From IMG/VR virus record IMGVR_UViG_2799112923_000002, positions 1 through 64,000 of that record: a stretch of 64,000 nucleotides of DNA; one strand, written 5' to 3'. Each line of letters begins with the position of its first letter. Position 1 is the stretch's first letter. Shown piece after piece: positions 6,678-61,732 of this stretch. The DNA is from a virus (Duplodnaviria > Heunggongvirae > Uroviricota > Caudoviricetes). The translations under genes were made by a program, and so were the position numbers. The notes under the pieces are model-generated. The model was not told where the DNA came from, ran no database searches, and was given only the letters and a program-made list of their open reading frames with translations.

Positions 6678-6679
6678 AA

Positions 6680-6799
6680 CTATTCCTCCTCTTCGGTTAA
6701 TATTTCGTCCAGCTGCTCTAACTGATCCTTTATGAAATCCTCTATCTCCTTAAAGGTATGTCCTTTCCAGGGTTCATCTAAATTTTGAATCATACTCAT
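6680..6799 (-). CDS. Small ORF (39 aa) homologous to the extreme N-terminus of paralog A, abutting the start of paralog B
   Basis: MSMIQNLDEPWKGHTFKEIEDFIKDQLEQL vs paralog A MSTINTLQEPWNGHTYKEVETFVKNKIDDL; TAG stop at 6680-6682 lies 2 nt from the paralog B ATG (6675-6677) in another frame. Confidence 0.45.
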   Translation of the reverse strand: MSMIQNLDEPWKGHTFKEIEDFIKDQLEQLDEILTEEEE

Positions 6800-6818
6800 A
6801 GTAATTTTATTAAATTAA

Positions 6819-7458: not shown

Positions 7459-7563
7459 CTTATATAAATTTTAAAATAGTGTCTGTGAGAGGCTTTTTGT
7501 TAGTAATGTTTTTATTTCTTAGATTATTTATTGTTGTGCAATCTGTGATATAGTTGTAAAATG

Positions 7564-9315: not shown

Positions 9316-9331
9316 ATTTATATAAATTTTT

Positions 9332-9358
9332 AAAATAGCCCCATATAGGGGCTATTTT
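9332..9358. terminator. Bidirectional hairpin terminator (tagcccc-atata-ggggcta) flanked by A- and T-runs
   Basis: Perfect 7-bp inverted repeat between convergent/adjacent minus-strand genes. Confidence 0.55.
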
Positions 9359-9361: not shown

Positions 9362-12300
9362 TTACGGTGTATTTAATGTCTCTCAGTTACCATTATTGTA
9401 ATACTTTATTCCAGAACTGTCTATCTTTAGACCATAAGTTCCATTCGTTAAGAATTCTAATGTTAGAGAATTGTTTGTATTTACAACCTTGAAGTAATTA
9501 TTTGCATTTATACCATGTATGAATCCATTTGCTCCAATTTCAGTAAATTCTACTAACGTTGATGCAGCTGTATGATGGTTTATAATCGGATCAAATGTAA
9601 CTCAGTTTAGATAAACCTCTGGGTTATATATTCCAGAAGGAAGTCCAAATTGACCGTCCGTCATAAGCATTAATTCTGCTTTAACATACATCGTATAATC
9701 ACCTCCTGTTATAGGGAACGCTTCATTATCTATATCAGAAGAATTAGCTCTCATATCTACTGTAAATGGATCACTAGATAATGTAAAATGATCATAATGT
9801 TCTTCAAATGTAGTTAAATCCTCCTCTCCTTCATGTTGATATCATTCCTGAACTATAGCACCTGTGTTTTGATTAACAGCATAAACATCTAAACTAACAC
9901 TACATTGAATATTGTGTCCAGTAACAACTTCTTCTAAACCTTGACCTTTAAGATGAACTGTTCATTGTTGAGGGATATTTTCGGAATAAATTAAGTCTCT
10001 TTGTGTTCCAGATGAAACAGCATTAATATGAACCGTACCTAATGTATAAGTTCCTTCAAAGTATGCGGGTTGTCCAGAATATGCTGAATCGTCTATTACA
10101 GGTCCACCTAAGAATTCATTACCAGGAGAAGTTCCAACAATAATTTGTTTATGATTATCAAAGTTAGTAGAAACATCTTCTCCAGATATCTTACATCTAG
10201 TTTGCCCATCTTGCTGTAAATTTATTACATTGTTCATAATATCTAGAGTTTCTCCATTATTATTACTTGTATGTAATTCTTTTACAGATAATTGATTTAC
10301 ATCAATTTGATTGGCTGCAATTTTATCTGAAAGTAAAAGTTTTGTTGCTACAAAATCCCAACCAACAGCTTGAACAAAATACTCTGTAAGTGTTGAAGGA
10401 TTTGAATTCGCAGTAATTGCAGAACTATCATATGGAAGTTTTTTCTTACATCTCCATAATCTATCTGCATTAGATGCTGCATTTGTTATAGTAATACCTT
10501 CATCAGCAACAGGCCAAATAGCGACATCATAATATGCAGCATTATCTTCTTCTCCAGAATACCATCCATCTTGGCCTTCTGCATCAGGATATGTATAACT
10601 TGTAGATCAGTTACGCATTCTCAGCATAGGACCAGCATGTCCATTTTCCCCAGCAGTACTAATGAGTTCATATTTAATATCTTGTAATGGTGCTGAAGTA
10701 TATACTGTTACAACTTTTTTCCATAAATATTTATATGTATTATCGGAAGGTTGTGAAGGAATAGTAGAACTTCATCCAGAAGCACTCTCAGCAGGATGGG
10801 AAGTTCCGCTATTGTATCACATATAATAATTAGTAACACTAACTATACCACGTCCATCATCACCAGGAGTACCAGGAGTACCATTAGAAACAATTGTTAC
10901 AGGAATGTCTTCTGGACCGTCTTCGATAGTACCTCCAGTTTTAGCAGTTGCTAAAAGTAAATGAAGATCCTGAATATTGGAATTCATGTTTAAAGGATAA
11001 GACTTGCTAACATCTGTCCAATTAACATCAACTGTACTACCGTCATATAAAAAGACTTTATATCCAGATGGCATTGCCGATGCTATTGCGGTACTTCCAT
11101 CTACATAAGATTCCTTCATAACTTTGACATTGATATTAACTTGTGAAGGAGAACTTGTTGTAGAATTATATACTATTGCTGCTGGTGTGAAGTCAAGATA
11201 ATAATTATCTTCTCCGATTTTCTTTCCAACTTCAAACTGTTTATAATAATGTGCATCATTATATGAGGCTTCAACCATTGCAATAGCACTATCAGCATTA
11301 GCTAAAATACCGGTTAATAAAACATCACCATTGGTTTTAATATATACAGTATTTGCGGCAGGATTTGCAGGAAATTCTGAAACAGCTGTTCCACCATTGC
11401 CAGCATAAACACCAGATACATTACTAATCGCTCATGTAACATTGCTTGCTAATGAAGCACCGTCATATAATCTTGCGGTTGTTGTAGAATTTCTTCTACT
11501 TATCTTAGTTCCATTATGATCATAGATTAATTCATCTTTATCGTTTGTAAAGTCGATGCGTATAGAATTTTCTCCACGAACTCTGGCAATATGCCAATCT
11601 TCCCATACACCATTTACTTTATTACATGTAGCCATCCATAACGGATCAACAATAGAATCATCATCTGCTCATACTCCTAAATTATGACTGCTACAATAAT
11701 TTCTCCATGCAGTTTCATCTATACCTTCTGGATTTGCATCGGTAACATAATTATTTAAACTAGGAAGTTGAGTAGATGCACCATCTTGAAGAATTGATGC
11801 AGAATATTCTACTTGGAAACGATCAGTGTCGGCCATTTTACTTGGAGAACTTCAAGTTGTACCTGATTGTCCAAATACTCTTTGTGTCATCCAAACTGTT
11901 CCGTTTCCAGCAGGAACAGAATCGTACCATGTTACAGTATGCTGCACTCCTCCTTTAGTATAACTGGAAGGATTTGGAATAGGATTACTTTCACTTCCAC
12001 CTTCGATTACTAACGCTGGACTTAGAGCAAGAAGATTTTCATTTGTTCTTGTAAATGCAAATGCTGTAAATATAGAAGCATCTACATAAGCTCATTTATT
12101 CCATAACTTTGGTTCGGAATACCAACTCCATACTTCATCTCTATATTTTCTAATAGAAACAAATTCCAGAGGTTCACTTGCACTAACATCTGATGGATCA
12201 TCTGTTCAATTCCTGTCCCATCCTAATGATTGAGGAACAGGATAATCACCTGGAATAAATTCGTCATTTTGATAAGCCTGTAATGCCAATTCATCAGAGA

Positions 12301-13381
12301 TTCCAGTTAAACGTGTAACTGCAAGATATTGATCTCTGCTCATTGGGGGAAATACTGTACTATCAACAAGTGTCCATGATCCATCTTCATTTTGTCTACA
12401 TTGATCTGGAGCAACAACATGGAAAATGTATTCTATACCATCTCCGTCTGTACCATCTTGTCCTCATACAGCTCAAGGCATAGGGCCAATAAACTCACCT
12501 CATTTTCCTGTAGTTTTATTTCTTTTTCTTGTGCACATTGCTTCTACAGGATAGACATCTGGATCTATAGCATTTGGCTGATCGGATCATCCTGCGGGAA
12601 TGTAATCATCTGTATCTGGATCAGAATAAGGAGTTTCTGCTCTAGAAACATCTTCTACACTATGAAATAATTTATAAATAAATTCAGTATTATCTCCATC
12701 TACACCATTGCGTCCATCTTTTCCATCTTTTGCATAATTTATACAAACTGGATCGGATCATTGGCCAACTAAGTTACCATCAGATGCTAAGAATGTACCA
12801 GTAGAAAGCCATGTAAACGAACCTGCTTGATGATGATTGTTGTCATCTCAGTAAACAATATCTCCTGTTGCAGTTCCATTTTTTCTAACTATGGACGTTA
12901 TTGGTTTCTCTAATACATTTAATTCTGGATCTCAATGTCCACCTTGTGGTGTATCTAATTCTACATCTCTGTCTGGCCATTCACCATAAATTAAAAAAAC
13001 TCTTGTGGAACCTGGTTCAATTCTAGGTTGAGAACCGCCTTCTCCAGTAGAATAAATTAATACTGGTTCTGTTCATGGGACATATACTTTTTCTGGACCG
13101 ACTATTGTGTATGTCATCCAGATATCATCTGTTAATCCGTCTGGTGTAGATCATCCAGAAGGATAATCAGTTGGATTATTAGAACTCATTACTTTTGTAG
13201 GAGTGCTTGGTTTCTCTGTAGAAGATTTAAATACAGGAATACAACTTACAGCATTATTTCCATTTATAAGTTTAATTCTTTCTGCATATTCTTCTGGAGA
13301 AACACACTCATCTACATCAACTCCCATTTCAATTATAGAGTTTCTAATATCACTAAAAATGTGTCTTAATTCTTCAATCAT
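9362..13381 (-). CDS. Large tail fibre/tail spike protein (about 1339 aa) with collagen-like GTPGTPGDDG motif; many TGA=Trp
   Basis: ORF fragments 13151..13381, 11432..11635, 10817..11278 and 9962..10237 lie in one frame and connect through TGA codons; TAA at 9362-9364; ATG at 13379-13381. Confidence 0.6.
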
Positions 13382-13383
13382 AA

Positions 13384-14889
13384 TTAATATTTATTATAAT
13401 AAGGTGAGGATTTTCAGTCTTGAGGACCTTTATATTGAGAATAATCTACCTGTCTTCCATATTTATCTAATGATGGTCAATTTCAGTCATATTCACCTAA
13501 TGCCATAGCTCTTCTTGCAGCAGAACGTACTCCAAGTCAACCATTTGCAGATTTTGAATGAGTCATATGCTTTACTAATTCCTTTGGATCAGTAATACCA
13601 GAATTAATCATGTTCATTAAATTTGGACTACCTTTTATTGTACCAACTACACCTTTTCCGTTATAAGATGTGTCGACTAATGCCAACTGTACATTTCTTG
13701 GAAGATTTTTAAAATTTTCGACTCTATTCGTTCACTCATCGTATTCAGCTTGCAATTTTCTTTCCATCTCTTTTCTTGCAATCTCTTCAGTAAGTTTTCC
13801 TTGTTTAGCCAATTCTATAATTTTAGGATTGGCACTTCCATAACCTGCTAATGTTTGTGGTTTTCCTTCTGATGTATTTAATATATATGCATCGGGACGA
13901 AATGTTTCAAAACTACCTGTAAATTTAGCAAGATCTGCAATAGTTTTTTCTGGTGTAACAGTAACTTCTGGTAATTCGATAGCCGGTTCATTTGCAATAA
14001 GATTATATTGTCTTTGATAACCTTTTGGTTTTTCTTGTATTAACATCATTGGATGATGTTCTTGTGGCTGCCAGAATTGAATATCTGTTACGTGAGAATT
14101 GTTTAAAGTTGGATTTGATTCCACTTTCTTTCCGCTTTGTGTTCTTAAAATACCACCGCCTTTATAACCCATTACTTCTAATGCAGTTTTACGTCTTCTA
14201 TCAGAATGATTATTAAATGTTTTTCCATACATCTCTTTATGTTTCGCATCGTACATTCTTTCTATACCGCTTATAATACTTTGAATGTTATTCTTATTAA
14301 CATTTCTGTGATTAGCTGCAGTATACATGGCATATGTATAATCAGAAGCTTCTTCTGGAGTTTCCGCAGTACGCAAAGCTGCTAAAAATTCTGGATACTT
14401 TCGTTGTATTTCATCCATTGCGAAATCTAATTGAGATTGTAATGAATTGCCATGACTGTTAACTCAATTAACATAATCATTATGTCTTTTTCCAGTTCAT
14501 TGTCCAATTCCTATTCCATATTGTGATGAACTAACTGAAGAATTTTTACCAGCTTTTTCTGCAGCATTTTCAGCATTTGTATTTAATCCTGATTCCGATA
14601 GAAGATTTGCAATAATTCCAGATGATTGTGCCTTGGTTAAGCCAAGTCCGTTCATTAAATAATCTCTAGCTGTTCTGCTCCTACCTTGTCTAGAAGAATC
14701 GTTTCAATCGATAGAAACTACAGGTGTTTGTACAACAGTTTCTTTTAATTCCGGTAATGGCGCCAGTGATATTTCTTCTTTTGGTTTTTGAACACTTTTT
14801 ACAATAGGTATATCGAAATTATCCGGTTCTATTGGTTTAAATTGTGTTTGTATTTGATTTACATAAGGTGTGTACTGTATCTGTGCCAT
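13384..14889 (-). CDS. Tail-associated peptidoglycan hydrolase / tape-measure-like protein (about 501 aa, several TGA=Trp)
   Basis: ORFs 14704..14889 and 13732..14418 plus a manually translated C-terminus to TAA 13384-13386; contains GLGLTKAQSSGIIANLLSESGLN resembling the phage tail lysozyme motif (GIxGNxxxESG). Confidence 0.55.
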
Positions 14890-36550: not shown

Positions 36551-37279
36551 ATGGAAAGAATTATAATTGTTCCAGATGTACATTGTAGAGATTTTTATAA
36601 ACCTGTTCTTAAAATAAAGGATACAAAGATAGTTTTTCTTGGAGATTATCTTGATCCATATCAATACGAAAATCTTTCTTTTGAAAAAGGTTTAGAAAAT
36701 CTTGAAGAGATTATTCAATTTAAAAAGAACAATCCTGATAATGTTACATTGTTATTAGGTAATCATGATTTTAACTATGTTTGGCAAAAGAATTGGGCTA
36801 CAAGATTTAATTCGGAATTTTCTTCAGAAGCTCATAGACTTTATCTAGATAATTTTAAATTATTTGAACCATATAAATTGATAGGTGATATTTTATTTAC
36901 TCATGCAGGAGTTTCTGATGGATGGATAAAATATCATAAAATAGAAGGAAATATTCCAGAATATATTGATATTAATTGGAATATCTTTTTATATGGTGCT
37001 GTTGGTCCAAAAGAAGAATCATATCTTCCAATTTTTGATTGTGGTAAGATTAGAGGTGGATGGGAGAAATATGGTGGAATTTTTTGGAACGACGTTCGAG
37101 AAATGGATTATTTGAATCCTATAGATTATGTTCAAATTTTTGGACACACTCAGTTGGGTTTAACCGGAGATACAATTGAAATGAAAGATGAACCATTTAA
37201 AGGTAAACCTAGATATTGTTGTGATTCTAGATCTATATTTGTCTATGAAAATAATCAATTAACACGATATGAAAATTAA
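36551..37279 (+). CDS. Calcineurin-like metallophosphoesterase (Ser/Thr phosphatase family)
   Basis: Motifs DVHC...GDYLD...GNHD...HAG. Confidence 0.6.
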   Translation: MERIIIVPDVHCRDFYKPVLKIKDTKIVFLGDYLDPYQYENLSFEKGLENLEEIIQFKKNNPDNVTLLLGNHDFNYVWQKNWATRFNSEFSSEAHRLYLDNFKLFEPYKLIGDILFTHAGVSDGWIKYHKIEGNIPEYIDINWNIFLYGAVGPKEESYLPIFDCGKIRGGWEKYGGIFWNDVREMDYLNPIDYVQIFGHTQLGLTGDTIEMKDEPFKGKPRYCCDSRSIFVYENNQLTRYEN

Positions 37280-41393: not shown

Positions 41394-41465
41394 GCCCCAT
41401 TGGTCGATAGGTAAGGCAACTCTCCCTAAAAGAGGCATATGCGGGTTCAAATCCTGTATGGGGCA
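41394..41465 (+). tRNA. Aberrant tRNA-like gene; anticodon arm ctct-ccctaaa-agag would present CTA (reads UAG) with C33
   Basis: Perfect acceptor gccccat/atggggc and T-arm GGGTTCAAATCC; 3-bp D-stem; 4-bp anticodon stem. Confidence 0.4.
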
Positions 41466-41595
41466 CATTATATGTGAAATGTATCTAGGACGCTAGAATA
41501 CAAAGTAACCGGGTTTGGCTACAACCACACTGGAAGAAACCAAAAAGCACAGTGTATTAAAGAGGTACCTGGGAACAGAAACCCTCTTATTTTAT

Positions 41596-44747: not shown

Positions 44748-45905
44748 ATGAAACAACCAACTAGAACTTTACCACAAGCTCTTAAAGAGTTTCCTAAGTC
44801 TTGGAAAGAAGTTTTCTTTAATAATATACCTGAAAACTTTTATAACCTTCCTTATGAAGAAAAAATAAAGTGTATCGGTAATACGCGACAAACGTACTAC
44901 TGTTCATTTAAAAATAATAAGTTATTTTTTGGTTTAAAGTCAATAATTATTAAAAGGATTGGAAGAAAGTTTTATCCTGAACATTCTTGGACTAATACAA
45001 TTGTTATAGAAAATAATAAAATCGAAACTTCAAAATTAGACCATAATGGTGTGAAAAGATTTCTTTCTATTGTTGGATTAAATTTACCATTTTTATCAGA
45101 TAAAAATCTTTCTGCAAAACTATTAAGTTTCATTACAAGGTCTTATGTAATAGCGGACATTTTACGAAAGAAGGTTTATAGCGAAGAAACACTTTGTAGA
45201 TGTATTCTATCTAAGGGTTACCATTTAAAAGGTTTTGATTGGAAACTGTTTTACAAATATATAGAATGTGAGTCAAGTGATTTTATAAGTATTTTCGATT
45301 TAAAAGATTTTACAAAAGATTTAGCAAAAAGTATGCAAACTCTAATAAATCGAAATCCTTATATTTATGATAATACATATAGCGATTTGTTAAAATGTGC
45401 TGTAAAGTTAAATGAAATTGTAGACTTTACATGGTCTGAAAAAAGAATTCAGATAGAGCACCAAAGACAAATTACTGAATTAAATCGCATAGAAATCGAT
45501 AAAAAAGAACAAGTTCCTATATATGATGTATGTTTAGATGAACCAAACATTCATATGTTAAATACTGAAAAAGAAGTATTTATTGAAGGTACAAGTATGC
45601 ATCATTGTTTATACAATTGCTATTGGAACAAAATTCAAAGTAAGAATCATATTGCATTTCATATGACTAAACCAGAAGTTTGTACATTTAGTTTTGAAAT
45701 CAAAGATGATAAGGTTACATTGAATCAAGCTTTCTTGGCTTATGATAAACGTATTTCTGATTCTACTAGAGAAGTGATACTTGATTTTATGAATCGAAAT
45801 AAATCAGATTTGTATAGGTTATTAACAAATAAAGTATTATGTGAATGGCCTTTTGATGAAGATGATAATAGAGATGTAGTTGAACCAGTACCATTTCCAT
45901 TTTAA
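44748..45905 (+). CDS. Hypothetical protein (385 aa)
   Basis: ORF. Confidence 0.5.
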   Translation: MKQPTRTLPQALKEFPKSWKEVFFNNIPENFYNLPYEEKIKCIGNTRQTYYCSFKNNKLFFGLKSIIIKRIGRKFYPEHSWTNTIVIENNKIETSKLDHNGVKRFLSIVGLNLPFLSDKNLSAKLLSFITRSYVIADILRKKVYSEETLCRCILSKGYHLKGFDWKLFYKYIECESSDFISIFDLKDFTKDLAKSMQTLINRNPYIYDNTYSDLLKCAVKLNEIVDFTWSEKRIQIEHQRQITELNRIEIDKKEQVPIYDVCLDEPNIHMLNTEKEVFIEGTSMHHCLYNCYWNKIQSKNHIAFHMTKPEVCTFSFEIKDDKVTLNQAFLAYDKRISDSTREVILDFMNRNKSDLYRLLTNKVLCEWPFDEDDNRDVVEPVPFPF

Positions 45906-47033: not shown

Positions 47034-48059
47034 ATGAACAAGATTTTAGTTTACACATCTAATCTTACGAGCAAGCCAAAGAGTCTTGCTGACGTAATTG
47101 CATTTGCAAAGGAGAACGATAAGTTTCGTATTTGCAATGTAGGTCTTAACGCTCACCTTGGAAATGTTAAGCCTGGTGATAACATTATTACCGGTAAGGG
47201 TAATTCTATTTATGTAATTAAGGCTTTCGATCAGGAGATTGAGAATCTCTCTGGTGAAGATCGTGATTACATCGATAACCTTACTCGCAACTATGATATC
47301 AAGAAAGTTGGTATCACGAGTGTTTCTTCTGTCATCAAGTATGGTGACTGGTGCAAATTTGCAAAACCGCTTCTTAACGAGGCAAAAAATAATTCAACAA
47401 TGAAAGGTAACAATTCTATTAAGGGTTTCTCCGCCCGTCTGAAGGAGATGTTTATGCCCTCTGAGGCAACGGATGTGCGTATCGCCACCGATGGTAATAT
47501 TTGTGTAGAGACTGCTAATGGCTTTGTCGCCATTGGTGTTAATAACGACCTTGTAGCTTATCCTGAAGAGCTCACTCTTAAGCTGCCTGTGTTTATCGTT
47601 AGCAAGCCTATCGACCAGGTAAAGGTTGGCGACGTTATCGCTCGCGATCGTAGCTATGCTAAGGTCAAGTCGATCGATAAGAATAAGATCGGTGTTGTCA
47701 GCTATACTGGTGCTGGTTCTCAGATCTATCCGATCAAGGACTTCCTGCTTGGTCAGAGCCTTGTTCGCGTTGTAGTATCTCTTGCAGGTTCTATCAACGG
47801 TTCCATCAATCCTATGATTCTCCTCGCTATGAGTGATGGTGACAAGGATTCCATGCTTCCTCTGATGCTTATGAGCCAGAATAATGGTGCTCTTGGTGCC
47901 AATCCTATGCTCATGTATGCTATGATGAAGGACGGTGGTGACATGAAGGATCTTCTTATGATGTCCGCTCTCACTGGAAACAATAACCTGTTCGGAAATC
48001 TCTTTAGTGCTCCTGCTCCGGTAGCTGCAGCACCTGCAGAAGCACCTGTTGAAGGTTAA
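47034..48059 (+). CDS. Hypothetical protein (341 aa) with Met/Gly/Leu-rich C-terminal tail
   Basis: ORF; C-terminal PMILLAMSDGDKDSMLPLMLMSQNNGALGANPMLMYAMMKDGGDMKDLLMM; moderately GC-rich; terminator at 48074-48112. Confidence 0.5.
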   Translation: MNKILVYTSNLTSKPKSLADVIAFAKENDKFRICNVGLNAHLGNVKPGDNIITGKGNSIYVIKAFDQEIENLSGEDRDYIDNLTRNYDIKKVGITSVSSVIKYGDWCKFAKPLLNEAKNNSTMKGNNSIKGFSARLKEMFMPSEATDVRIATDGNICVETANGFVAIGVNNDLVAYPEELTLKLPVFIVSKPIDQVKVGDVIARDRSYAKVKSIDKNKIGVVSYTGAGSQIYPIKDFLLGQSLVRVVVSLAGSINGSINPMILLAMSDGDKDSMLPLMLMSQNNGALGANPMLMYAMMKDGGDMKDLLMMSALTGNNNLFGNLFSAPAPVAAAPAEAPVEG

Positions 48060-48073
48060 TTACGCATAACAAA

Positions 48074-48112
48074 AAAGGGTTCTGGGAAAGCTGTAGTTCT
48101 CAGAACCCTAAT
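48074..48112 (+). terminator. Rho-independent terminator (gggttctg...cagaaccc)
   Basis: 8-bp perfect stem followed by taatttta. Confidence 0.55.
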
Positions 48113-48121
48113 TTTATTATT

Positions 48122-48850
48122 ATGGATCCGCTTTCATTTTTAAATTACGATACAACATATTCTTTTAGAATAAAGGATCATACAAAAAATCTAGAACATC
48201 AAGCGTGCTTTTCATATATTTTTAGTATTGCTGATATTTCTCCAAAAGATTGTGTTCATTATACTATTTGGATTAATAGAGATCCAGAATATGCACAGAA
48301 TTCGAAATCAAATTACTGTTTTTTATCAAAGCAAGAACTTCATAATCATATAAGACTTGTTAAAAAATTATTTGATTTTAATTTTTCAATAGAAAGTAAA
48401 GACGATTCATTTTTAGTTCATATCGATATTTCACAGCCAAAAATTGCACATAAATATTTACTAACTTGGATTAGATATATTTATGAATATCCAATGAATG
48501 TGATGTTTTATGATGTTGATAGATTAAAGAGAGAAGAAAAGTGTTTTAAATTTACATCTAAAGCTAATTTATTCCTTCTTTTATCTTATTTTCGTTGGCC
48601 AGGTTATAGAGATATTCATTGTGTTCCTTCTGGAAAATGTGGTAAGTTTTTGACAAACACACAATTAAAAAACGCTATTTTTAAATCTACACATTTGAAT
48701 AATATTTATAAATCGTATTATTCTATTGATAAGCGTTATACTATACCAGCATGGAAAAATTATGATTATTGTGAAAAAGAAGAGTTGGATCGTACTTATC
48801 AAGAACGATTAGTTCATTATTTAGAATTTTATAACAAAGTTGTCAAATGA
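48122..48850 (+). CDS. Hypothetical protein (242 aa)
   Basis: ORF. Confidence 0.5.
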   Translation: MDPLSFLNYDTTYSFRIKDHTKNLEHQACFSYIFSIADISPKDCVHYTIWINRDPEYAQNSKSNYCFLSKQELHNHIRLVKKLFDFNFSIESKDDSFLVHIDISQPKIAHKYLLTWIRYIYEYPMNVMFYDVDRLKREEKCFKFTSKANLFLLLSYFRWPGYRDIHCVPSGKCGKFLTNTQLKNAIFKSTHLNNIYKSYYSIDKRYTIPAWKNYDYCEKEELDRTYQERLVHYLEFYNKVVK

Positions 48851-49467
48851 TAAAAGTATATGTTGTAGGAAACAGTAAGTATTATGCTAGTTTTCTAACA
48901 AATGTAGAATTAACAGACGATATTACTAAAGCAAAAATTGTATTATTTACTGGAGGAGAAGATGTTGACCCTTCTTTATATGGAAAGAAGAAACATCCTT
49001 CTACATATAGTAATTTGCAAAGAGATCTTTATGAAAAAGAAATCTTTAGTCAAATGCGTAAATCACAATTAGCAGTTGGTATTTGTCGTGGATCTCAATT
49101 TTTGTGTGTAATGAATGGAGGAATTCTTGTTCAGAATTGTACTAATCACGCTTTATTCCATACACATAGAATTTTTAATGCAGATCGAACATTCTTTTAT
49201 GAAATTACTTCTACGCATCATCAAATGCAATATCCATTTGTTCTTCCAAAGACTAGTTATGATATTTTATATCATGCAGAAGAAGGATCTTGTGTAGAAG
49301 GTGATGGTATTTCTTCTGATCCTATCGTTGAAAATGAACCAGAAGTAGTAGTATATCATAGAAAGAATTTACCAAAATGTATTGCTATTCAAGGTCATCC
49401 GGAAATGATTCCTAATAGTCCTGTAGCAAAAATGTTAGATGAACTTATAAAGTCTTATGTACATTGA
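48847..49467 (+). CDS. Class I glutamine amidotransferase-like / gamma-glutamyl hydrolase (peptidase C26) family protein
   Basis: FTGGEDVDPSLYG ... GICRGSQF (nucleophile Cys) ... QGHPE (catalytic His). Confidence 0.6.
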   Translation: MIKVYVVGNSKYYASFLTNVELTDDITKAKIVLFTGGEDVDPSLYGKKKHPSTYSNLQRDLYEKEIFSQMRKSQLAVGICRGSQFLCVMNGGILVQNCTNHALFHTHRIFNADRTFFYEITSTHHQMQYPFVLPKTSYDILYHAEEGSCVEGDGISSDPIVENEPEVVVYHRKNLPKCIAIQGHPEMIPNSPVAKMLDELIKSYVH

Positions 49468-50251
49468 TAATTTTACAATTGGTGCAGACCCTGAATTATT
49501 TATTGTAAATTCTAAAACTGATAAAGTTGTATCTTCTATTGGATTAATTCCTGGTGTGAAAGGCGATCCATATGTAGATAAATGTATGCCATCTGGATTT
49601 GGACTGGAAACAGATAATATTCTTGCAGAATTTAACATTCCGCCTTGTAAAACAAAAGAAAGTTTTGTTACAAGTATAGAGTGGATGAAAAGTTATATTA
49701 GGGATTTTGTTAAAAGAGTAAATCCTGATTATGACATTAAATGTTCTGCTAGTGAATTTGTAGATCCAGATCAACTTCAGAGTGATGAGGCAAAACAATT
49801 TGGATGTTCTGTAGATTATAATGCTTATACACAAGAACCTAATCCAAAGCCTAACGGACAGTCTACAAATCTTAGATCAGCAGGATGTCATATCCATATT
49901 GGATATAACGGATATAATGCAAGAACCTCTGTAAATCTGATTAGATTATTTGATTTGTATGTAGGTGTACCATCCATTCTTATAGATAATGATATTAGAC
50001 GTAGAAATCTCTATGGAAAAGCTGGTGCATTTAGATTAACATCTTATGGTTGTGAAGCGAGAATTTTATCAAGTTATATGATGTCCACACCTCAACTTAT
50101 AAGTTGGATATGGGACCATGTAATGCTTGTCATAGACGCTTATAACGCAGGTAATAGTTGTGCAGATACATCTGCCGTAGTTAAAGCTATTAATGAAAGT
50201 GATAAAGATCTTGCAACACGAATTTGTAGAAAATATAACATTCCTGTATAA
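49457..50251 (+). CDS. Amidoligase (carboxylate-amine ligase, GCS2/YbdK-like fold), copy 1
   Basis: N-terminal FTIGADPELFIV (cf. YbdK FTLGIELE) and GCHIHIGY (cf. GQHVHVG). Confidence 0.5.
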   Translation: MYIDNFTIGADPELFIVNSKTDKVVSSIGLIPGVKGDPYVDKCMPSGFGLETDNILAEFNIPPCKTKESFVTSIEWMKSYIRDFVKRVNPDYDIKCSASEFVDPDQLQSDEAKQFGCSVDYNAYTQEPNPKPNGQSTNLRSAGCHIHIGYNGYNARTSVNLIRLFDLYVGVPSILIDNDIRRRNLYGKAGAFRLTSYGCEARILSSYMMSTPQLISWIWDHVMLVIDAYNAGNSCADTSAVVKAINESDKDLATRICRKYNIPV

Positions 50252-51531
50252 TGTGTGGTATTTTTGGAATCATCAATAGAAAACCTAGTAAGTTTGATTA
50301 TTCTACTTTTTGTACATTAGGTATAGCTAATGATATTAGAGGTGGAGATTCTTGCGGTATTTTTATTGATGGAAAAACTGAATATGGTATTGGTAAAGAA
50401 AAGTTTTTCGAAGATTTTTTCTTACAAAGTGAACTCTTAAACGATACCGAAAGAGCTACAATTGCTTTAGGACATTGTAGAAAAGCTTCTGTTGGAGCTA
50501 TTAATTTGGCTACAGCTCAACCGATTGTAATTCAGGATGAAAACAATAATACAAAATTTGTAGTCATTCATAATGGTACAATTTATAATTATAAAGAATT
50601 AGCTGAGAAGTATATTCCAGATATAGATATTACTGGATTAACCGATAGTCAAGTTATGGCTAGAATATTCTATTATAAAGGATATGATGTTTTATCCGAA
50701 TATAATGGAGGAAGTGTCTTTGTAATTGTAGATTATCGCACAGTTAAACCAAAGGTTTTATTCTTCAAAGGTGTTTCTAAGAAGTATGACACTTCTACAG
50801 AAGCAACAGAAGAAAGACCTCTTTATCTTTGTTTTTCTAAAGATAAATTAGTATTTTCATCAATTTATACATATTTGGCAGCATTATGTCCAGATATGGT
50901 AATTTATACAGGTAATGCTAATTCGTTAGCTCAGTATGAAGATGGAAAATTAATTAAAGTACGTCAATATGATAGGTCTAAGTGTGTACAACAGCGTACT
51001 TATCCTGAAACAAAAAGTACCGGTCTTTATGAAGAATATGCAGGATATTTGTCGTTCGCTCTTAAGAAATTTCGTTACAGTCTTGATGGCGGTAAAAAGA
51101 TTCCTGTTGGCCCATATTTCATAAACGAGTGGGGAGGTACATATAAAAATAAACCTACTTATACTGCTTCAACACAGTATTATTTCTTTCATGGAATTCC
51201 ATTCTTAGATAGAAGTCGTTACGATTATGTATGGGAACATTATACAAAGGCTAAAACATGTATGGAAGATTTTATAGCGGATAATGAAATTTTGATTAGA
51301 TTTCTTAGTTCGAATCCGTTTATATTTAAAGATAATCGTTTATTTACTATAAAAGATCCAGATCATGTAGAACCATATACAGGTAATTTTGTTCCAATAG
51401 GTGGATCTAGAAAGTCAAAGTATAATGAAGGTATATTTGTATGTGAAGTTTATGATTATTCGCGTACAAATTTTAATTATTCCATAAAAGATATTAATCT
51501 TAATTCACTTAATTCATTATGGAAACTATAG
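50251..51531 (+). CDS. Class II (Ntn) glutamine amidotransferase domain protein
   Basis: Starts MCGIFGI with Cys2 nucleophile, then DIRGGDSCGIF, as in PurF/AsnB/GlmS N-terminal domains. Confidence 0.65.
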   Translation: MCGIFGIINRKPSKFDYSTFCTLGIANDIRGGDSCGIFIDGKTEYGIGKEKFFEDFFLQSELLNDTERATIALGHCRKASVGAINLATAQPIVIQDENNNTKFVVIHNGTIYNYKELAEKYIPDIDITGLTDSQVMARIFYYKGYDVLSEYNGGSVFVIVDYRTVKPKVLFFKGVSKKYDTSTEATEERPLYLCFSKDKLVFSSIYTYLAALCPDMVIYTGNANSLAQYEDGKLIKVRQYDRSKCVQQRTYPETKSTGLYEEYAGYLSFALKKFRYSLDGGKKIPVGPYFINEWGGTYKNKPTYTASTQYYFFHGIPFLDRSRYDYVWEHYTKAKTCMEDFIADNEILIRFLSSNPFIFKDNRLFTIKDPDHVEPYTGNFVPIGGSRKSKYNEGIFVCEVYDYSRTNFNYSIKDINLNSLNSLWKL

Positions 51532-52739
51532 ATGGAATTACAGGAAAAGTAATTCATAATCGTGTATTTCGATATATAGCTGAAGTAGTAAATGGGATTT
51601 TAATTTACGGAAATACTAGTAAAGTCGAGGAATTACGTAGTGTTATAGTTGTTGCTGAAGGTAGAAAAACTTCAGCATTTTGTGATCCTAAGTCAGTTAA
51701 AAATATTACATGGAGTCCTTTTCTAGGAGATTATGTTTTAATTGTCGATGATCATTGTCCAGATGCAACACATGTAAAATACGGATTAAATCCTGATTTA
51801 TATCCTTATACATTTCAGAAAAAATATGAAGCTGTACAACATTTTAATTTGTTTAAAGATAAGCAAGTTAAAATAGAAGATTATGATTTTCCAATTGCAA
51901 AGTATGTAACACGTACAATAGGTATTGAGTTTGAAACATCTTTAGGTGCTATTTCTGAAGAAGATTGTTTAAAATATGGACTTATTCCATTAAGAGATGG
52001 ATCTATTAGTGGTGTAGAATATTCAACTGTTATTTTACAAGGTAATTCTGGATTTAATTTACTCAAAAAACAATTAGATTTATTAAGACAGAATACATTC
52101 TTTAATAAAGATTGTTCTTTACATATTCATTTTGGTGATTATCCATTAGATCCAAAATTAATTTATAAACTGCAAGCCTTGTTATATAACATTCAAAATG
52201 AAATTCAATGTTATATTCCAAGATATTCCTTTTATACAGAAAAATATAAGAGTAATGGTAAAGCATATTGTAAACCACTTGCATCTTATAGTAGCTTTTC
52301 TGATTTCTTCGTAGCGTTAACAGGAACTCCGTTCTTAGGAAGTTTTACTCAACCTCATCCAAATGACATTACAAGAGATCATAAATGGAATGTTCCAACT
52401 AGATATTATTGGTGTAATTTCATAAATCTCTTATGTTATAATGTTAACAAAACTGTTGAATTCAGATTTTTGCGTCCGACTTATAATCTTGAGAAGATTT
52501 TAACTTGGATTTACATTCTCAACGGATTTTTGGAATATGCTTCGCGTGGATTAAGAACGCTTCGAGTTGATATTAGAACTGTATTATCTACGGTTTATCC
52601 TAAAGAAGTTTTTGAATTTTTATGTGTACAGTTAGATAAATTAACTTGTCTTAGGGACATGCAATGTCACAATTTAGATTACATTGGTGAGGACATTACT
52701 CTTGAGAACAGATTGTTTGATGATAATAAAATTATTTAA
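51519..52739 (+). CDS. Amidoligase (GCS2-like), copy 2 (406 aa)
   Basis: TIGIEFETSLG ... CSLHIHFGDY signature blocks parallel to 49457..50251. Confidence 0.45.
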   Translation: METIDGITGKVIHNRVFRYIAEVVNGILIYGNTSKVEELRSVIVVAEGRKTSAFCDPKSVKNITWSPFLGDYVLIVDDHCPDATHVKYGLNPDLYPYTFQKKYEAVQHFNLFKDKQVKIEDYDFPIAKYVTRTIGIEFETSLGAISEEDCLKYGLIPLRDGSISGVEYSTVILQGNSGFNLLKKQLDLLRQNTFFNKDCSLHIHFGDYPLDPKLIYKLQALLYNIQNEIQCYIPRYSFYTEKYKSNGKAYCKPLASYSSFSDFFVALTGTPFLGSFTQPHPNDITRDHKWNVPTRYYWCNFINLLCYNVNKTVEFRFLRPTYNLEKILTWIYILNGFLEYASRGLRTLRVDIRTVLSTVYPKEVFEFLCVQLDKLTCLRDMQCHNLDYIGEDITLENRLFDDNKII

Positions 52740-52761
52740 TATGTACTGATTTTGATAATAT

Positions 52762-52809
52762 AGCGCATCGTTTTGGTACTTTAAAAGGTTCGAATCCTTT
52801 GATGCGCTC
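52762..52809 (+). ncRNA. 47-nt tRNA minihelix-like element (7-bp acceptor stem + T-arm, no D or anticodon arms)
   Basis: agcgcat cgttttggtacttt aaagg-ttcgaat-ccttt g atgcgct c. Confidence 0.4.
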
Positions 52810-53099
52810 TAATTAATTTAAATAAATATGAAAAAAATATTATATCTTATCGGATTGTTTTTAGCAGCACTAATTATTGGTGGTTCTGTAATACTTATAA
52901 ATATAAATAATAAGAAAGAACAGAAAAATACTGAGTATTATAATGTAATATATTATAATTATGATGTTTCATTAGAATATCATGATGTAACTGATTTACA
53001 TTATGATACTATAGGTATTTATTTTAAAACACAAGATGGAGCTACCGTCATTTTAAATGGTGGAGCGATTGAAATTATACCATTAGATGTAGATTAAAT

Positions 53100-53714
53100 A
53101 TGATAACAAAATTTAGTGGAAATAATTTATTTTTCACATCGGATACACATTTTGGACATCAACATATTATTAAATTATGTAAACGTCCTTTTAATACAAT
53201 AGAGGAACACGATCAAAAGTTAATTGAGAATTGGAATTCTGTTGTAGGACTTGAAGATACAGTATTTCATCTTGGCGATTTTGGTTTTGGAGGAACACAA
53301 AAATGGAAAGAGATTCGTAATCAATTAAATGGACATATAATTCTTATCTTGGGAAATCATGATATGAAAAATGCATCTCAAGGTGCGTTAGATTTATTTG
53401 ATTATGCATCACAGCAAATGAAAATTCAAATAGACGACAGAACAGTTTATTTGAATCATTTTCCATTTTTAACATATGCCCATTGGAATCCTGAAGTATT
53501 TTCTCGTGAGTCCTTAGCGTTTGCTCTTTCTGGTCATACACATATTCGTAAAGGTGATACTGGATTTGATGCACAATTTACTTCTTTATATAAACCTACA
53601 CAGTACGATGTAGGTGTTGATTTTAATGAATACAAACCTATCGCTTGGAAAGAAATAAATAGACGTATTCAATATCAGTTAGATCATCATTGTAATTTGA
53701 CTAATTGGATGTAA
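53100..53714 (+). CDS. Calcineurin-like metallophosphoesterase
   Basis: TSDTHFGH ... LGDF ... GNHD ... GHTH motifs. Confidence 0.65.
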   Translation: MITKFSGNNLFFTSDTHFGHQHIIKLCKRPFNTIEEHDQKLIENWNSVVGLEDTVFHLGDFGFGGTQKWKEIRNQLNGHIILILGNHDMKNASQGALDLFDYASQQMKIQIDDRTVYLNHFPFLTYAHWNPEVFSRESLAFALSGHTHIRKGDTGFDAQFTSLYKPTQYDVGVDFNEYKPIAWKEINRRIQYQLDHHCNLTNWM

Positions 53715-58131: not shown

Positions 58132-59262
58132 ATGAGTAGATTTGAAAAGTATTATATCACTCCGGCTATAAAAACATATGTAGATCATAGAGAGGAGTGT
58201 ATTCCTTATTACGATGCTTTTTATTCTGAAGAAGCTGGTGGATGGATTTTAGCAGGCGCATCTCTTCCAATTTTTGTTGCACCAATGGCGTGCATTATAG
58301 ACGATAATAACTGGAAAAAGTTTGATTCTGAAGGACTTAATGTAATTATTCCAAGAACTGTTGATTTTGAGAAAAGACTTAAACTTGCAAATGAGCAATT
58401 ACTTTGGATTGCTGTTGGATTGGATGAATTAGAAAAAATCTATAATTTATCTAATATTGAAGAAATGTATGTTTGTTTGGATATAGCAAATGGACATATG
58501 GCAAGTGCACTAGATTTATGCAGTAAAGTAAAAGAAAAATTTGGAAATAGAGTTACTTTAATGTTTGGAAATATTGCAAATGCTGATACATATTTGGAAT
58601 ATGCTAAAGCAGGAATTGATTATTGCCGTGTTGGAATTGGTGATGGTCAAGCTTGTTTAACCAACACTCTTACAGGTATTTCTCAAGATTTTCCAAAAAT
58701 AATTAAAGACCTTAATTACAGAAAGCAACGTGTTGCATCAAGTGGAGCTTTCTATAAAAGCGTTCCTAAAATTGTTATCGACGGTGGTATGTCTTCTATA
58801 CGTGATATAGTTATCGCTTTAGCAATGGGTGCTGATTATGTAATGTGTGGTAAGATTTTCGCTCAATGTGAAGAAGCTGCTGGTGAAATTGTTTCAAAAC
58901 TTATTGAAACAGTTGAACAATTTAAAAGGCACACTACCGAATTAAGAGATTATCCTTTTGATGAAGATTCAGAAGATGTCGATGGATCAGCTAAAACATA
59001 TCCTGTTTTGTTTGATAGTAAACAGTTTGTTTATCAACGTGGCAGAATGTATTACGGTATGTCAACTGAACGTGCTCAGAAAGAGATGGGAAACAAAAGA
59101 ATTAAACCCGCAGAAGGTAAAGAATATTGGATTCCTATTGAATATAAACTTAGTGAGTGGGTTCATCAGTTTGTGGCCGCAATAGCATCTACCATGAGTT
59201 ATTGCAACGTTACTCAACTTAAGGATTTTATCGGAAAAGTTACCATAAATAAATACGATTAA
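58132..59262 (+). CDS. GMP reductase / IMP dehydrogenase-family TIM-barrel enzyme
   Basis: VCLDIANGH ... VGIGDGQACLT ... IDGGMSSIRDIVIALAMGADYVMCG parallel the GuaC/GuaB active-site blocks. Confidence 0.6.
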   Translation: MSRFEKYYITPAIKTYVDHREECIPYYDAFYSEEAGGWILAGASLPIFVAPMACIIDDNNWKKFDSEGLNVIIPRTVDFEKRLKLANEQLLWIAVGLDELEKIYNLSNIEEMYVCLDIANGHMASALDLCSKVKEKFGNRVTLMFGNIANADTYLEYAKAGIDYCRVGIGDGQACLTNTLTGISQDFPKIIKDLNYRKQRVASSGAFYKSVPKIVIDGGMSSIRDIVIALAMGADYVMCGKIFAQCEEAAGEIVSKLIETVEQFKRHTTELRDYPFDEDSEDVDGSAKTYPVLFDSKQFVYQRGRMYYGMSTERAQKEMGNKRIKPAEGKEYWIPIEYKLSEWVHQFVAAIASTMSYCNVTQLKDFIGKVTINKYD

Positions 59263-59842: not shown

Positions 59843-59870
59843 TTTATTAATAAGTATCAATAAGTGTATA

Positions 59871-59960
59871 GGAGCTTAGTGTAACGGTAGCACACAGGTC
59901 TTCAAAACCTGGGTAGCGGCGTCCAAAACCGCGGGTGTGGGTTCGAATCCTGCAGCTCCT
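59871..59960 (+). tRNA. Suppressor tRNA, anticodon TCA (decodes UGA), about 90 nt with long variable arm; candidate UGA-to-Trp decoder
   Basis: Acceptor ggagctt/cagctcc, anticodon arm caggt-cttcaaa-acctg (perfect 5 bp, anticodon 59902-59904), extra-arm hairpin gcgg-cgtccaaaa-ccgc, T-arm GGGTTCGAATCC. Confidence 0.65.
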
Positions 59961-60145
59961 GCAGTAAAATACAATTATTATGGAATTTATATTTATTTAT
60001 TCGATTCCTTGTATCATAAGTTTTTTGCTTATGAATCAATGTTACAAGAAAAATTTATTAGATTATCCAATGCTTTCTGCATTAAGTTGTATTATTCCTT
60101 TTGTAAATTGGATTGGATTGGTATGTTTTATATGTAAATTAAAAA

Positions 60146-61732
60146 ATGATTAATGAATTAAAATTTGGGAATTATGCAAAAGAAGCTCTTCTTACAGGAA
60201 TGTCAAAAATTGCAGAAGCTGTTGGATCAACACTTGGCCCAAAAGGAAAATGTGTAATTATTGATAATTATTCTAATGGACTTCCTCATGTAACTAAAGA
60301 TGGAGTTACTGTTGCAAAAAATATATTCCTTGAAAATAAATTTGAAAACGTAGGTGCTACATTACTTAAACAAGCTGCATTAAATACTGTGCGTTCTGTA
60401 GGAGATGCGACAACATCTTCAACAGTTTTAGCTTATAAAATGACATCTAATGCTTTTAAAACAATTGATGGACATAATTTATCATTAATAAAGAAAGGTA
60501 TTAATACAGCAGCTGATTTTGTTAAGACCACCATACAAGGGTCATCGATCCCTGTAAAATGGGATGAATTAGAAAAAATTGCATCAATTTCTGCAAATAA
60601 TGATCAAGAAATAGGAAATATTGTTGCAGAAGCATTTAGAAAAGTTGGATTGGATGGAGTAATTACTGTAGAAGAATCTGCAAATAATCAGACATCTATC
60701 GAAATAATCAATGGTATGCAATTTGACAGAGGTTTTATATCTCATTGGTTTATTACAGATAAAGCTAAAGGAGAATGTGTTCTTGAAAATCCTTTAATTT
60801 TAATTACAGATCAAAAAGTACAACTAATTCGTGAGATTCTTCCTGCTGCAGAATATTGTGCAAAAAATGGAAGGGCAATGTTAATAATTGCTCAGGATTT
60901 TGACGATGAAGTAATTCAAAATTTACGATTAAACCATATTCAGGGAAACATTAAGTGCTGTTTGGTAAAAGCTCCTTCATTTGGAGATTATAGAAAATAT
61001 GTCTTAGATGATTTAGCTTTACTTACAAATGCAAAATTAGCAACTTATGACAATGGTATAGAGCTTCAAAAAGTCGATGGTTCTATGTTAGGATCTTGTG
61101 GAAAAGTTGTAATTACTAAAGATTCCACTACAATATTAAATGGCTCTGGACAAGCAGATCTTGTCAATCAAAGGGTTTCCGAAATTAAAACCTTATTATC
61201 CACTTTACAGAGTGGAGAAGAAACTTTGATCAAATTTCATAAAGAACGTATTGCACGTTTAGTTGGAGGAATATGTTCCATTAAAGTTGGAGCAAATTCT
61301 GAATTAGAAATGCGTGAAAAGAAAGATAGAGTCGACGATGCTGTATGTGCTACTAGAGCTGCTTGTGAAGAAGGTATTGTTCCTGGAGGAGGTATTACAT
61401 TTTTAAAAGCATTTTTAGAAATGCCTACATCCGATAATAAAGATGAAAATGTAGGAATCGATATTGTGAAATCATCCTTGACTTCTATATTTGACAAGAT
61501 TGTAGAAAATGCTGGATATAATCCAAAAGAAATTGGCAGAGAAGTTTATCCTGCTGATAATATATCTTGGAATGCAGATACAGAACAATATGAGAATTTT
61601 CTAGATTCTGGAATCGTTAATCCGGCTAAAGCAGATCGTTTAGCTTTTGAAAATGCAATAGACGTATTAAATATGTTTATATCTACTAATTGTATAATAA
61701 CTGAAAAAGACATATTTAAAGAAATTAAGTAA
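60146..61732 (+). CDS. groEL: GroEL-like group I chaperonin (528 aa)
   Basis: Alignable by eye to GroEL: KFGNYAKEALLTGMSKIAEAVGSTLGPKGKCVII...LPHVTKDGVTVAKNIFLENKFENVGATLLKQAA...GDATTSSTVLA. Confidence 0.8.
   Translation: MINELKFGNYAKEALLTGMSKIAEAVGSTLGPKGKCVIIDNYSNGLPHVTKDGVTVAKNIFLENKFENVGATLLKQAALNTVRSVGDATTSSTVLAYKMTSNAFKTIDGHNLSLIKKGINTAADFVKTTIQGSSIPVKWDELEKIASISANNDQEIGNIVAEAFRKVGLDGVITVEESANNQTSIEIINGMQFDRGFISHWFITDKAKGECVLENPLILITDQKVQLIREILPAAEYCAKNGRAMLIIAQDFDDEVIQNLRLNHIQGNIKCCLVKAPSFGDYRKYVLDDLALLTNAKLATYDNGIELQKVDGSMLGSCGKVVITKDSTTILNGSGQADLVNQRVSEIKTLLSTLQSGEETLIKFHKERIARLVGGICSIKVGANSELEMREKKDRVDDAVCATRAACEEGIVPGGGITFLKAFLEMPTSDNKDENVGIDIVKSSLTSIFDKIVENAGYNPKEIGREVYPADNISWNADTEQYENFLDSGIVNPAKADRLAFENAIDVLNMFISTNCIITEKDIFKEIK

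Follow-up and report, generated by a model that had tools for sequence, protein, structure and literature searches.

In the first 64,000 nucleotides (nt) of IMG/VR record IMGVR_UViG_2799112923_000002, an uncultured phage (Caudoviricetes), we identified a tightly packed operon of five genes that encode two amidoligases (Lig2 and AmL2), two glutamine amidotransferase (GAT)-type proteins (GAT1 and GAT-II) and a fifth component, w242, which belongs to an unnamed family. The whole stretch of 64,000 nt is referred to as the window throughout. A first-pass annotation, made from the letters alone, had likened this gene combination to predicted phage amidoligase/GAT associations, and profile searches as well as gene neighbourhoods place it among those of the phiEco32/LUZ24 type. 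With regard to function, we tentatively favour a virus-specific, glutamate/glutamine-centred amide-bond pathway in the infected cytoplasm, with both GAT proteins serving as gamma-glutamyl amidohydrolases cognate to the ligases, a reading that is plausible without reaching an even chance.

Architecture of the operon

Mechanical calling of open reading frames (ORFs) reproduced the six ORFs listed by the first-pass annotation, together with the motifs quoted for them. The functional unit is a tightly packed phage operon of five genes spanning 48122-52739; it includes w242 and excludes w341, the gene upstream. This span was redrawn because w242 proved to be integral and w341 (47034-48059, plus strand; 341 residues with a Met/Gly-rich tail) was unsupported as a member. 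The operon starts with w242 (48122-48850, 242 residues), followed by GAT1 (48847-49467, 206 residues), Lig2 (49457-50251, 264 residues), GAT-II (50251-51531, 426 residues) and AmL2 (51519-52739, 406 residues), all on the plus strand, with overlaps between consecutive genes of 4, 11, 1 and 13 nt, an arrangement of co-transcribed, translationally coupled genes. A terminator-like hairpin at 48076-48109 (plus strand; 13-bp stem, 6 G-C pairs, T-rich tail) marks the upstream boundary and separates w341 from the operon, which would be of an early or middle type.

Distribution and co-occurrence across viruses

A single-sequence query returned one locus, and an alignment query returned 462 IMG/VR contigs, the best 80 of which were scanned with hidden Markov models (HMMs); all locus counts given below refer to these 80, a sample biased towards the window's relatives. 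Lig2 was detected in 79 of the 80 loci, AmL2 and GAT-II (GAT2N) in 78 each, and GAT1 in 77, and all module genes lie on one strand. That the four families stand next to each other and point the same way in 77-79 of 80 loci is far beyond chance. Furthermore, the genes are closely spaced, as 74-100% of the junctions within the module, and 74-97% of those between the five operon genes, measure 10 nt or less, with median gaps of -4 nt for w242 to GAT1, -4 nt for GAT1 to Lig2, +4 nt for Lig2 to GAT-II, -13.5 nt for GAT-II to AmL2 and -11 nt for ATP-grasp to w242.

Additional families accompany the four enzymes to different degrees: the w242 family is present in 65 of the 80 loci, an ATP-grasp protein in 48, w341 in 30 and GGACT in 13, the last being therefore accessory. 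After dereplication at 85% Lig2 identity, 43 lineages remained, of which 30 carry ATP-grasp, 11 carry w341 and none carries both; no locus of the w341 clade, which numbers 30, contains ATP-grasp. A six-frame HMM search across all 64 kb of the window, performed also with TGA read through, yielded no match to ATP-grasp or GGACT at E<=0.1.

Beyond these contigs, tblastn with Lig2 identified at least 315 phage records, led by phages of Pseudomonas (121) and Escherichia (94) and followed by those of Vibrio, Aeromonas, Proteus, Salmonella, Cronobacter and others, and the module was seen in annotated members of Kuravirus, Bruynoghevirus, Grimontviridae, Zobellviridae and Crassvirales. The usual annotated set, mostly beside primase/helicase genes, consists of two proteins of ~300 residues labelled as unknowns, Lig2, a protein of ~200 residues, Amidoligase_2, a class-II GAT, an ATP-grasp protein of the RimK/R2K type and often GGACT/AIG2. 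The nearest annotated relative of the cluster is the crAss-like phage cr108_1, whose gp031-gp034 are syntenic with GAT1, Lig2, GAT-II and AmL2 and 38, 56, 43 and 40% identical to them, respectively, while the closest relatives in IMG/VR are contigs of 160-350 kb. A scan of prokaryotes with one genome for each of 185,579 species, which relied on a single peptide pattern and thus had limited sensitivity, gave 17 hits, nearly all of them on contigs of phage-like size from metagenome-assembled genomes. The module is thus essentially virus-restricted and almost absent from bacterial genomes.

In several loci, module genes are interrupted. A group I intron splits AmL2 in locus L033 (13010-13459; Rfam RF00028, 50.8 bits), and insertions of ~1 kb with reverse-strand ORFs split GAT1 in loci L011 (7251-8264) and L033 (8630-9649). 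The ORFs of these insertions had no informative Pfam match, the one in L033 showing weak helix-turn-helix matches only. In locus L087, Lig2 is split by ~250 nt (10453-10701).

In most lineages, the module lies within a replication and nucleotide-metabolism region, and the 20 commonest flanking families of the 43 lineages include DnaB, a PD-(D/E)XK exonuclease, UDG, dUTPase, RNR, PolA, Sak4, phosphoesterases and SPFH proteins. Such a setting, in which primase, helicase, UDG, dUTPase and RNR genes are neighbours, would suit a role in DNA modification, with the ligases and amidotransferases elaborating a side chain of the amino-acid type on a base such as thymidine. Lee et al. 2021 described amidoligase and glutaminotransferase genes, both uncharacterised, in gene clusters for thymidine hypermodification (PMC8989533), and this role was suspected for amidoligase/GATase genes that stand beside 5-HMUDK and aGPT-Pplase genes in viral metagenomes. 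However, none of the hallmark genes (5-HMUDK, aGPT-Pplase, TET/JBP, dUMP hydroxymethylase or DpdA-type) was found among the 27 larger window proteins scanned, a set that covers the small ORFs in part, nor among the 20 most frequent flanking families, and w242 matches no aGPT-Pplase family of Pfam. Moreover, LUZ24-like and phiEco32-like phages carry the module, and hypermodified DNA is not known to have been reported from them. DNA base hypermodification therefore appears very improbable as the role of the module.

Identity and active sites of the four enzymes

Profile searches bore out all four domain calls of the first-pass annotation, namely Peptidase_C26/GATase1 for GAT1, COOH-NH2_lig (PF14395) for Lig2, a class-II Ntn GATase for GAT-II and Amidoligase_2 (PF12224) for AmL2. 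GAT1, a class-I glutamine amidotransferase or peptidase C26-type amidohydrolase, matches Peptidase_C26 with E=1.6e-14, above the cut-off, and phrog_7218 ('glutamine amidotransferase') with 5.8e-34, while its match to GATase (PF00117; E=1.1e-4) falls just under the cut-off of that model. Its Cys-His-Glu triad, formed by Cys80 in GICRG and His184/Glu186 in QGHPE, is kept in 72 of 73 unique homologues. Among solved structures, GAT1 comes closest to Lin1909, a 'probable glutamine amidotransferase' (7d4r/7d53/7d50), and to PuuD, and the best NCBIfam match, far below its cut-off, is gamma-glutamyl-CDP-amidate hydrolase. Judged by sequence, GAT1 groups with the stand-alone C26 branch of gamma-glutamyl hydrolases and not with amidotransferase subunits.

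Both ligases are predicted to be active. Lig2, a COOH-NH2 ligase type 2 of the phiEco32 type (GCS2/YbdK-like) with the motifs FTIGADPELFIV and GCHIHIGY, matches PF14395 (E=3.8e-13) and, across its full length, phrog_3815 ('COOH.NH2 ligase', 1.4e-64), and D11, E13, D53, E58, R140, H145, H147, R182, R193, E200 and R202 are invariant in all 74 unique homologues. AmL2 (TIGIEFETSLG and CSLHIHFG), predicted to be a glutamine-synthetase-like ligase, matches PF12224 over residues 132-333 (E=4.3e-5, 23.9 bits against a curated cut-off of 22) as well as phrog_2443 (2.7e-15); here, E137, E139, D160, S162, E167, H202, H204, Y296, E314 and R316 are invariant in 74 of 74 homologues, and the N-terminal extension (residues 1 to ~130) differs between lineages. 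In the PDB, neither sequence nor profile searches with Lig2 found a solved structure, and sequence searches with AmL2 found no relative.

GAT-II, which begins with MCGIFGI, combines a class-II Ntn domain (residues 1 to ~210) with a lineage-specific C-terminal half. The matches to GATase_6/7 (E=7.5e-14 and 4.1e-10) are confined to the N-terminal ~210 residues, with Cys2 as nucleophile, and the alignment to PurF spans the Cys1, R-G, GH-R, HNG and DS motifs. C2, R30, G31, H75, R77, N108, G109, D132 and R189, which align with the glutaminase residues of PurF, are kept in 73-75 of 75 homologues. For residues ~215-426, in contrast, Pfam, PHROG and NCBIfam gave no match, and a deep homologue search with the C-terminal half remained empty. 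These halves cannot be aligned between lineages, some of which carry Cys-rich segments there. No fused synthase or acceptor domain (such as PRTase, SIS or AsnB synthetase) was found in the Pfam, PHROG and NCBIfam searches, and, since the C-terminal half varies between lineages, GAT-II lacks a conserved fused synthase domain. The peripheral domains of GAT-II and AmL2, which vary between lineages, give a weak hint of a host-specific target, either a macromolecule or the envelope. PADLOC returned no defence-system match for any of the six proteins, w341 included.

These assignments also bear on whether the genes are phage copies of host enzymes for glutamine, asparagine or glutathione synthesis, i.e., ordinary auxiliary nitrogen metabolism. 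Some genome papers label them as auxiliary metabolic genes for nitrogen or amino-acid metabolism (PMC10945688), and in the NCBIfam search the Ntn domain of GAT-II resembles GlmS, AsnB and PurF. However, the enzymes contain no Gln-synt_C, Asn_synthase, SIS or PRTase domains and are thus not plain glutamine synthetase or AsnB, assignments that the first-pass annotation had named as ones that would overturn its proposal. NCBIfam scores are far below the equivalog cut-offs (e.g., 56 vs 381 bits), and asn_synth_AEB matches GAT-II with 48 bits against a cut-off of 267 and over the Ntn domain only. Furthermore, Lig2 is practically absent from bacterial genomes, and the architecture of five to eight genes, in which w242 and PF14395 are virus-only families, is without parallel in hosts. 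We therefore consider this explanation hardly credible.

w242 as the fifth component

The first-pass annotation had mentioned w242 as an unknown protein of 242 residues next to the four enzymes. This was accurate insofar as neither w242 nor w341 has a match in Pfam, PHROG, NCBIfam or PADLOC, but it underrated the gene, which is an integral fifth component and accompanies the four enzymes in most of the related viral loci, as given above. The family comprises 326 cluster representatives from an exhaustive profile search, typically of ~250 residues, includes gp030 and gp029 of cr108_1 and their positional homologues, and was detected only in crAss-like and related huge-phage lineages. Its members had no sequence match in Pfam or the PDB, and none of the aGPT-Pplase families of Pfam was matched. 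Three positions are nearly or fully invariant: C29 (81 of 81), R118 (80 of 81) and E122 (77 of 81).

A direct connection to GAT1 is seen in loci L063 (7356-8891) and L068 (7843-9351), where a single fusion protein of ~505 residues joins an N-terminal GAT1 (E~1e-55 to 1e-59) to a C-terminal domain of the w242 family (E~1e-30 to 1e-31), which speaks for GAT1 and w242 cooperating physically. In both loci, the fusion gene is followed by a second, stand-alone GATase1.

A high-confidence model of a w242 paralogue gave structural matches to glutamine synthetase (GS) and GCS folds, the best being the Pup ligase PafA and the depupylase Dop. Judging from this model, w242 probably has a very divergent, non-canonical GS/GCS-like fold, although it is without the Glu/His metal and ATP constellation kept by Lig2 and AmL2. 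Attempts to connect w242 to Lig2, to AmL2 or to the paired ~300-residue unknowns of Kuravirus, Bruynoghevirus and Grimontviridae were negative or marginal with phmmer, hmmsearch and hhalign, and Foldseek gave weak hints only, to proteins of PaP4 and Aeromonas phage LAh_6.

A more far-reaching proposal, which we regard as rather unlikely, is that w242 represents a new, unconventional GS-fold subunit with an invariant Cys/Arg/Glu set, which would join the C26-type GATase1 in a two-component enzyme of an undescribed kind. In that case, phages of at least five families would depend early in infection on the output of the five-gene core, either a gamma-glutamylated or amidated compound specific to phages or a modified host macromolecule. 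If this were true, the product would serve phages ranging from 45-kb podophages to 350-kb gut phages.

The upstream neighbour w341

We found no support for the earlier suggestion that w341 might be a substrate, or a member, of the system, as it is set off by a conserved terminator of its own, is not translationally coupled to the operon and belongs to a family that is present in phages without the module. The hairpin with its T-run recurs at the w341-w242 junction through most lineages of the w341 clade, built from different sequences. The gap at this junction has a median of 65 nt, and only 3% of the junctions measure 10 nt or less, unlike ATP-grasp genes, which overlap or abut the next gene (gaps of -65 to +2 nt). 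Homologues of w341 were identified in the crAss-like phage cr85_1 (gp008) and in a Bacillus jumbo phage, in neither case near amidoligase genes. A whole-genome scan of cr85_1 detected its w341 homologue (2.8e-41) and no member of any of the seven module families, while in the Bacillus jumbo phage, where the absence of the module was judged from local context, the homologue is flanked by annotated virion structural proteins.

The w341 protein itself consists of a beta-rich core and a Met/Leu-rich repeat tail (NPMxLMAL...LLPLMLMxQxG), with three to four repeats in the Bacillus jumbo phage. As this repeated motif is conserved in all homologues, the Met-rich tail does not represent low-complexity noise. 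The gene fills the slot that ATP-grasp holds in other loci. A comparison of w341 with ATP-grasp as a cryptic member of that family gave an hhalign probability of 1.6%, and the mutual exclusivity of the two reflects a single clade without ATP-grasp.

The position of w341 and the similarity of the w242 paralogue to PafA and Dop bring up protein tagging of the Pup/PafA/Dop kind, in which the ligases would add an amino-acid or peptide tag, the thiol and Ntn hydrolases would remove it, and w341 would be the substrate. It is consistent with such a system that w341 adjoins the operon in 30 of 80 loci with identity down to 40%, that many module-linked homologues carry acidic C-terminal residues, and that the peripheral domains of AmL2 and GAT-II vary between lineages, as expected for macromolecular targets. 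Furthermore, cr85_1 (L099, record 78842-80730) encodes ThiF/E1-like and metalloprotease-domain proteins between primase and UDG, the slot in which cr108_1 (L001) carries the module; these genes might encode a conjugation system analogous to the module, or their position might be a coincidence. However, the separate terminator, the lack of translational coupling and the occurrence of the w341 family in phages without the module all speak against w341 as a substrate, which moreover is absent from 48 of 80 loci and from all cultured-phage modules examined, and no Pup-like small protein was seen. We thus consider protein tagging quite improbable.

Predicted chemistry and the roles of the GAT proteins

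In the gamma-glutamyl amidohydrolase reading introduced above, Lig2 (GCS2-like) and AmL2 (GS-like) would use ATP to activate a carboxylate as acyl-phosphate and condense it with an amine, while GAT1, through its Cys-His-Glu triad, and GAT-II, through its N-terminal Ntn cysteine, would bind a glutaminyl or gamma-glutamyl moiety. In such a cycle, a gamma-glutamyl (or related aminoacyl) group would be added, the intermediate elaborated and the group removed again, the GAT proteins not being ordinary ammonia donors. As the fifth subunit, w242 would work physically with GAT1, probably as a substrate-binding or scaffold partner with a degenerate GS-like fold. Candidate substrates include a small amine or peptide metabolite and a cell-wall precursor. 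ATP dependence, the gamma-glutamyl on/off logic and early action in the cytoplasm are what we infer for the pathway. With respect to timing, proteomics of phage SU10 lists an ATP-grasp protein, a GAT-II and a YtfP/GGACT-like protein among the 'Early gene products' (PMC4281155).

We favour hydrolase roles for the GAT proteins because GAT1 groups in the C26 branch, with PuuD and gamma-glutamyl-CDP-amidate hydrolase among its nearest relatives, because sister operons embed GGACT and an ATP-grasp protein of the RimK type, both signatures of gamma-glutamyl-amine chemistry, because GAT-II is without a conserved synthase domain, and because pairings of a ligase with a removing enzyme have precedents in PuuA/PuuD, EgtA/EgtC and BtrJ/BtrG. 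Several points weigh against this reading. The data are compatible with hydrolase and ammonia-donor roles alike. GAT-II retains every residue that binds free glutamine, and the GAT1-w242 fusion and the strict pairing of GAT with GS-fold proteins also fit a classical architecture of glutaminase plus synthase. Furthermore, the window is without GGACT and ATP-grasp, the most direct indicators of gamma-glutamyl-amine chemistry, and the 80 loci, as the best of 462, lean towards the window's relatives.

The same features lead to glutamine-dependent amidation, a doubtful but still credible alternative, in which w242, Lig2 and AmL2 would be the synthase halves of split amidotransferases, each activating a carboxylate with ATP, and GAT1 (with w242) and GAT-II (with Lig2 and/or AmL2) would supply ammonia to form carboxamides. 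Two carboxylates of one substrate would be amidated, possibly on a peptidoglycan precursor, in a manner analogous to amidation by MurT/GatD and AsnB1/LtsA. The conserved glutamine-binding and catalytic residues of GAT-II and the intact triad of GAT1 would suit this role, as would the tight gene coupling, the 1:1 arrangement of GATs and GS-fold proteins, the GATase-synthase domain logic of the fusion and the need of GAT-II, which is without a conserved synthase domain of its own, for a partner. Cell-wall modification has also been suggested for phiEco32, an idea that, together with superinfection exclusion, passages of two later papers attribute to Iyer et al. 2009 (PMC10580990, PMC11318856). 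However, GAT1 groups with stand-alone C26 gamma-glutamyl hydrolases, w242 is without the Glu/His metal and ATP constellation, and sister modules contain GGACT, whose substrates are gamma-glutamyl-amines and for which simple amidation offers no role. In addition, we know of no amidotransferase that combines a GS fold with a GATase.

Whichever chemistry applies, the module occupies 5-8 kb in genomes as small as 45 kb and is maintained, its active sites invariant, across Kuravirus, Bruynoghevirus, Grimontviridae, Zobellviridae, Crassvirales and huge gut phages while being essentially absent from cells. Its product could be a new phage-made metabolite, a modification of the cell envelope or of proteins, or counter-defence chemistry. 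For experiments, the question is sharpened to a minimal five-gene core without ATP-grasp and GGACT, with w242 as the partner of GATase1 and w341 dropped as a candidate substrate, and the cultured relatives LUZ24, SU10 and Cellulophaga phi14:2 offer better test beds than this uncultured phage.

Genomic context in the window

The 3' end of the operon is followed by a conserved non-coding element (52744-52810, plus strand), in which a 7-bp acceptor-like stem (GCGCATC/GATGCGC) surrounds a T-arm with GGTTCGAATCC. Its nucleotide identity among the window, L011 and L014 is ~90%, compared to only ~55-65% identity for the neighbouring proteins; it occurs once in the window, and its fold has a z of -2.5. 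Neither ARAGORN nor Rfam called the element, a transfer RNA (tRNA)-like minihelix that may act as an RNase P/Z processing or termination signal. Downstream, a protein of 89 residues with an N-terminal transmembrane-like segment (52828-53097) had no match to any family and has positional counterparts of 88-90 residues in L011 and L014. It precedes a calcineurin-like metallophosphoesterase (MPE; 53100-53714) that is kept just 3' of the module in L011, L014 and L021, and another one is encoded at 36551-37279. A paper on OM43 phage lists MPE, amidoligase and GATase genes together.

The window carries 25 tRNA genes, including suppressor-like tRNA(CTA) and tRNA(TCA), among them those at 41394-41466 and 59870-59962. 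The minus-strand late block (1-24,000) is TGA-recoded, since translating TGA lifts its ORF coverage from 0.39 to 0.79, whereas the plus-strand block with the module uses the standard code. With TGA read through, an ORF of 1,342 codons (9362-13390) appears in the late block. TGA=Trp is also required to read three paralogous tail-fibre-like proteins (4125-9351, minus strand), which share N- and C-terminal modules and contain BspA-type, Cys-containing leucine-rich repeats (LPATxLAxxCYxxMFxxCTSLT).

Besides the module, the plus-strand block holds NUDIX, metallophosphoesterase and SPFH proteins. SPFH/Band-7 (HflK-like) genes recur in module phages (window 28572-29390; L005 2000-2824; L026 13738-15663), and the SPFH protein of the window is 27% identical to that of Pseudomonas phage U47, whose gene immediately precedes the module. 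Further proteins with recognisable families are a PcfJ-like protein (44748-45905, 1e-8), an IMPDH/GMP-reductase-like protein (58132-59262, 1.1e-32) and a GroEL-like chaperonin (60146-61732; Cpn60_TCP1, 1e-58).

Comparison with known systems

The thymidine-hypermodification clusters (Lee et al. 2018/2021) differ from the module described here in that none of their hallmark genes was found in the window proteins scanned. MurT/GatD and AsnB1/LtsA resemble it in combining a GATase1 or class-II GAT with an ATP-dependent, carboxylate-activating partner to form a cell-wall carboxamide, in agreement with the cell-wall proposal that the passages cited above trace to Iyer et al. However, their partner is a Mur ligase or AsnB synthetase instead of a GS/GCS-fold protein, and no cell-wall genes are linked to the phage module.

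In the PuuA/PuuD system of Escherichia coli and related gamma-glutamyl-polyamine pathways, a GS-fold ligase gamma-glutamylates an amine, and a stand-alone C26/GATase1 hydrolase takes the gamma-glutamyl group off again. GAT1 has PuuD among its nearest solved relatives, with weak similarity (E 0.08-0.5), whereas the phage module is without the oxidase and dehydrogenase steps and its ligases come from PF14395 and PF12224. Ergothioneine biosynthesis pairs the GCS-type ligase EgtA with EgtC, a class-II Ntn 'amidotransferase' that hydrolyses a gamma-glutamyl amide, and butirosin biosynthesis pairs the ATP-grasp ligase BtrJ with the gamma-glutamyl cyclotransferase BtrG, the gamma-glutamyl group being a transient handle in both. 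By analogy, and at the superfamily level, full phage modules hold all three pairings of ligase and remover, although the window is without the ATP-grasp/GGACT pair of the BtrJ/BtrG kind.

The closest counterpart is the phiEco32/LUZ24-type module, which Iyer, Abhiman, Burroughs and Aravind are said to have predicted in Mol Biosyst in 2009. Passages of later papers likewise credit the association to Iyer et al. 2009 and call its function unexplored (PMC10580990, PMC11318856), and in the searchable literature we found no report of the module's biochemistry, as the first-pass annotation had stated. Differences from this type include the missing RimK/R2K ATP-grasp and GGACT genes, the presence of w242, in place of which other lineages carry different pairs of ~300-residue proteins upstream with no demonstrable homology, and the gene order, which is GAT1-Lig2-GAT-II-AmL2 in the window and Lig2-(~200 residues)-AmL2-GAT-II elsewhere. 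Moreover, the ~200-residue protein at the GAT1 position in Kuravirus, Bruynoghevirus and Grimontviridae has no Pfam match, and the window block sits among tRNA genes, while the others lie by primase/helicase. Nevertheless, the same four families form one co-directional block, and Lig2 of the window is 30-37% identical to the proteins of Kuravirus, Bruynoghevirus, Grimontviridae and Zobellviridae. The module of the window is thus an ATP-grasp-less, w242-containing version of the phiEco32/LUZ24-type amidoligase-GAT module that has been predicted since 2009.

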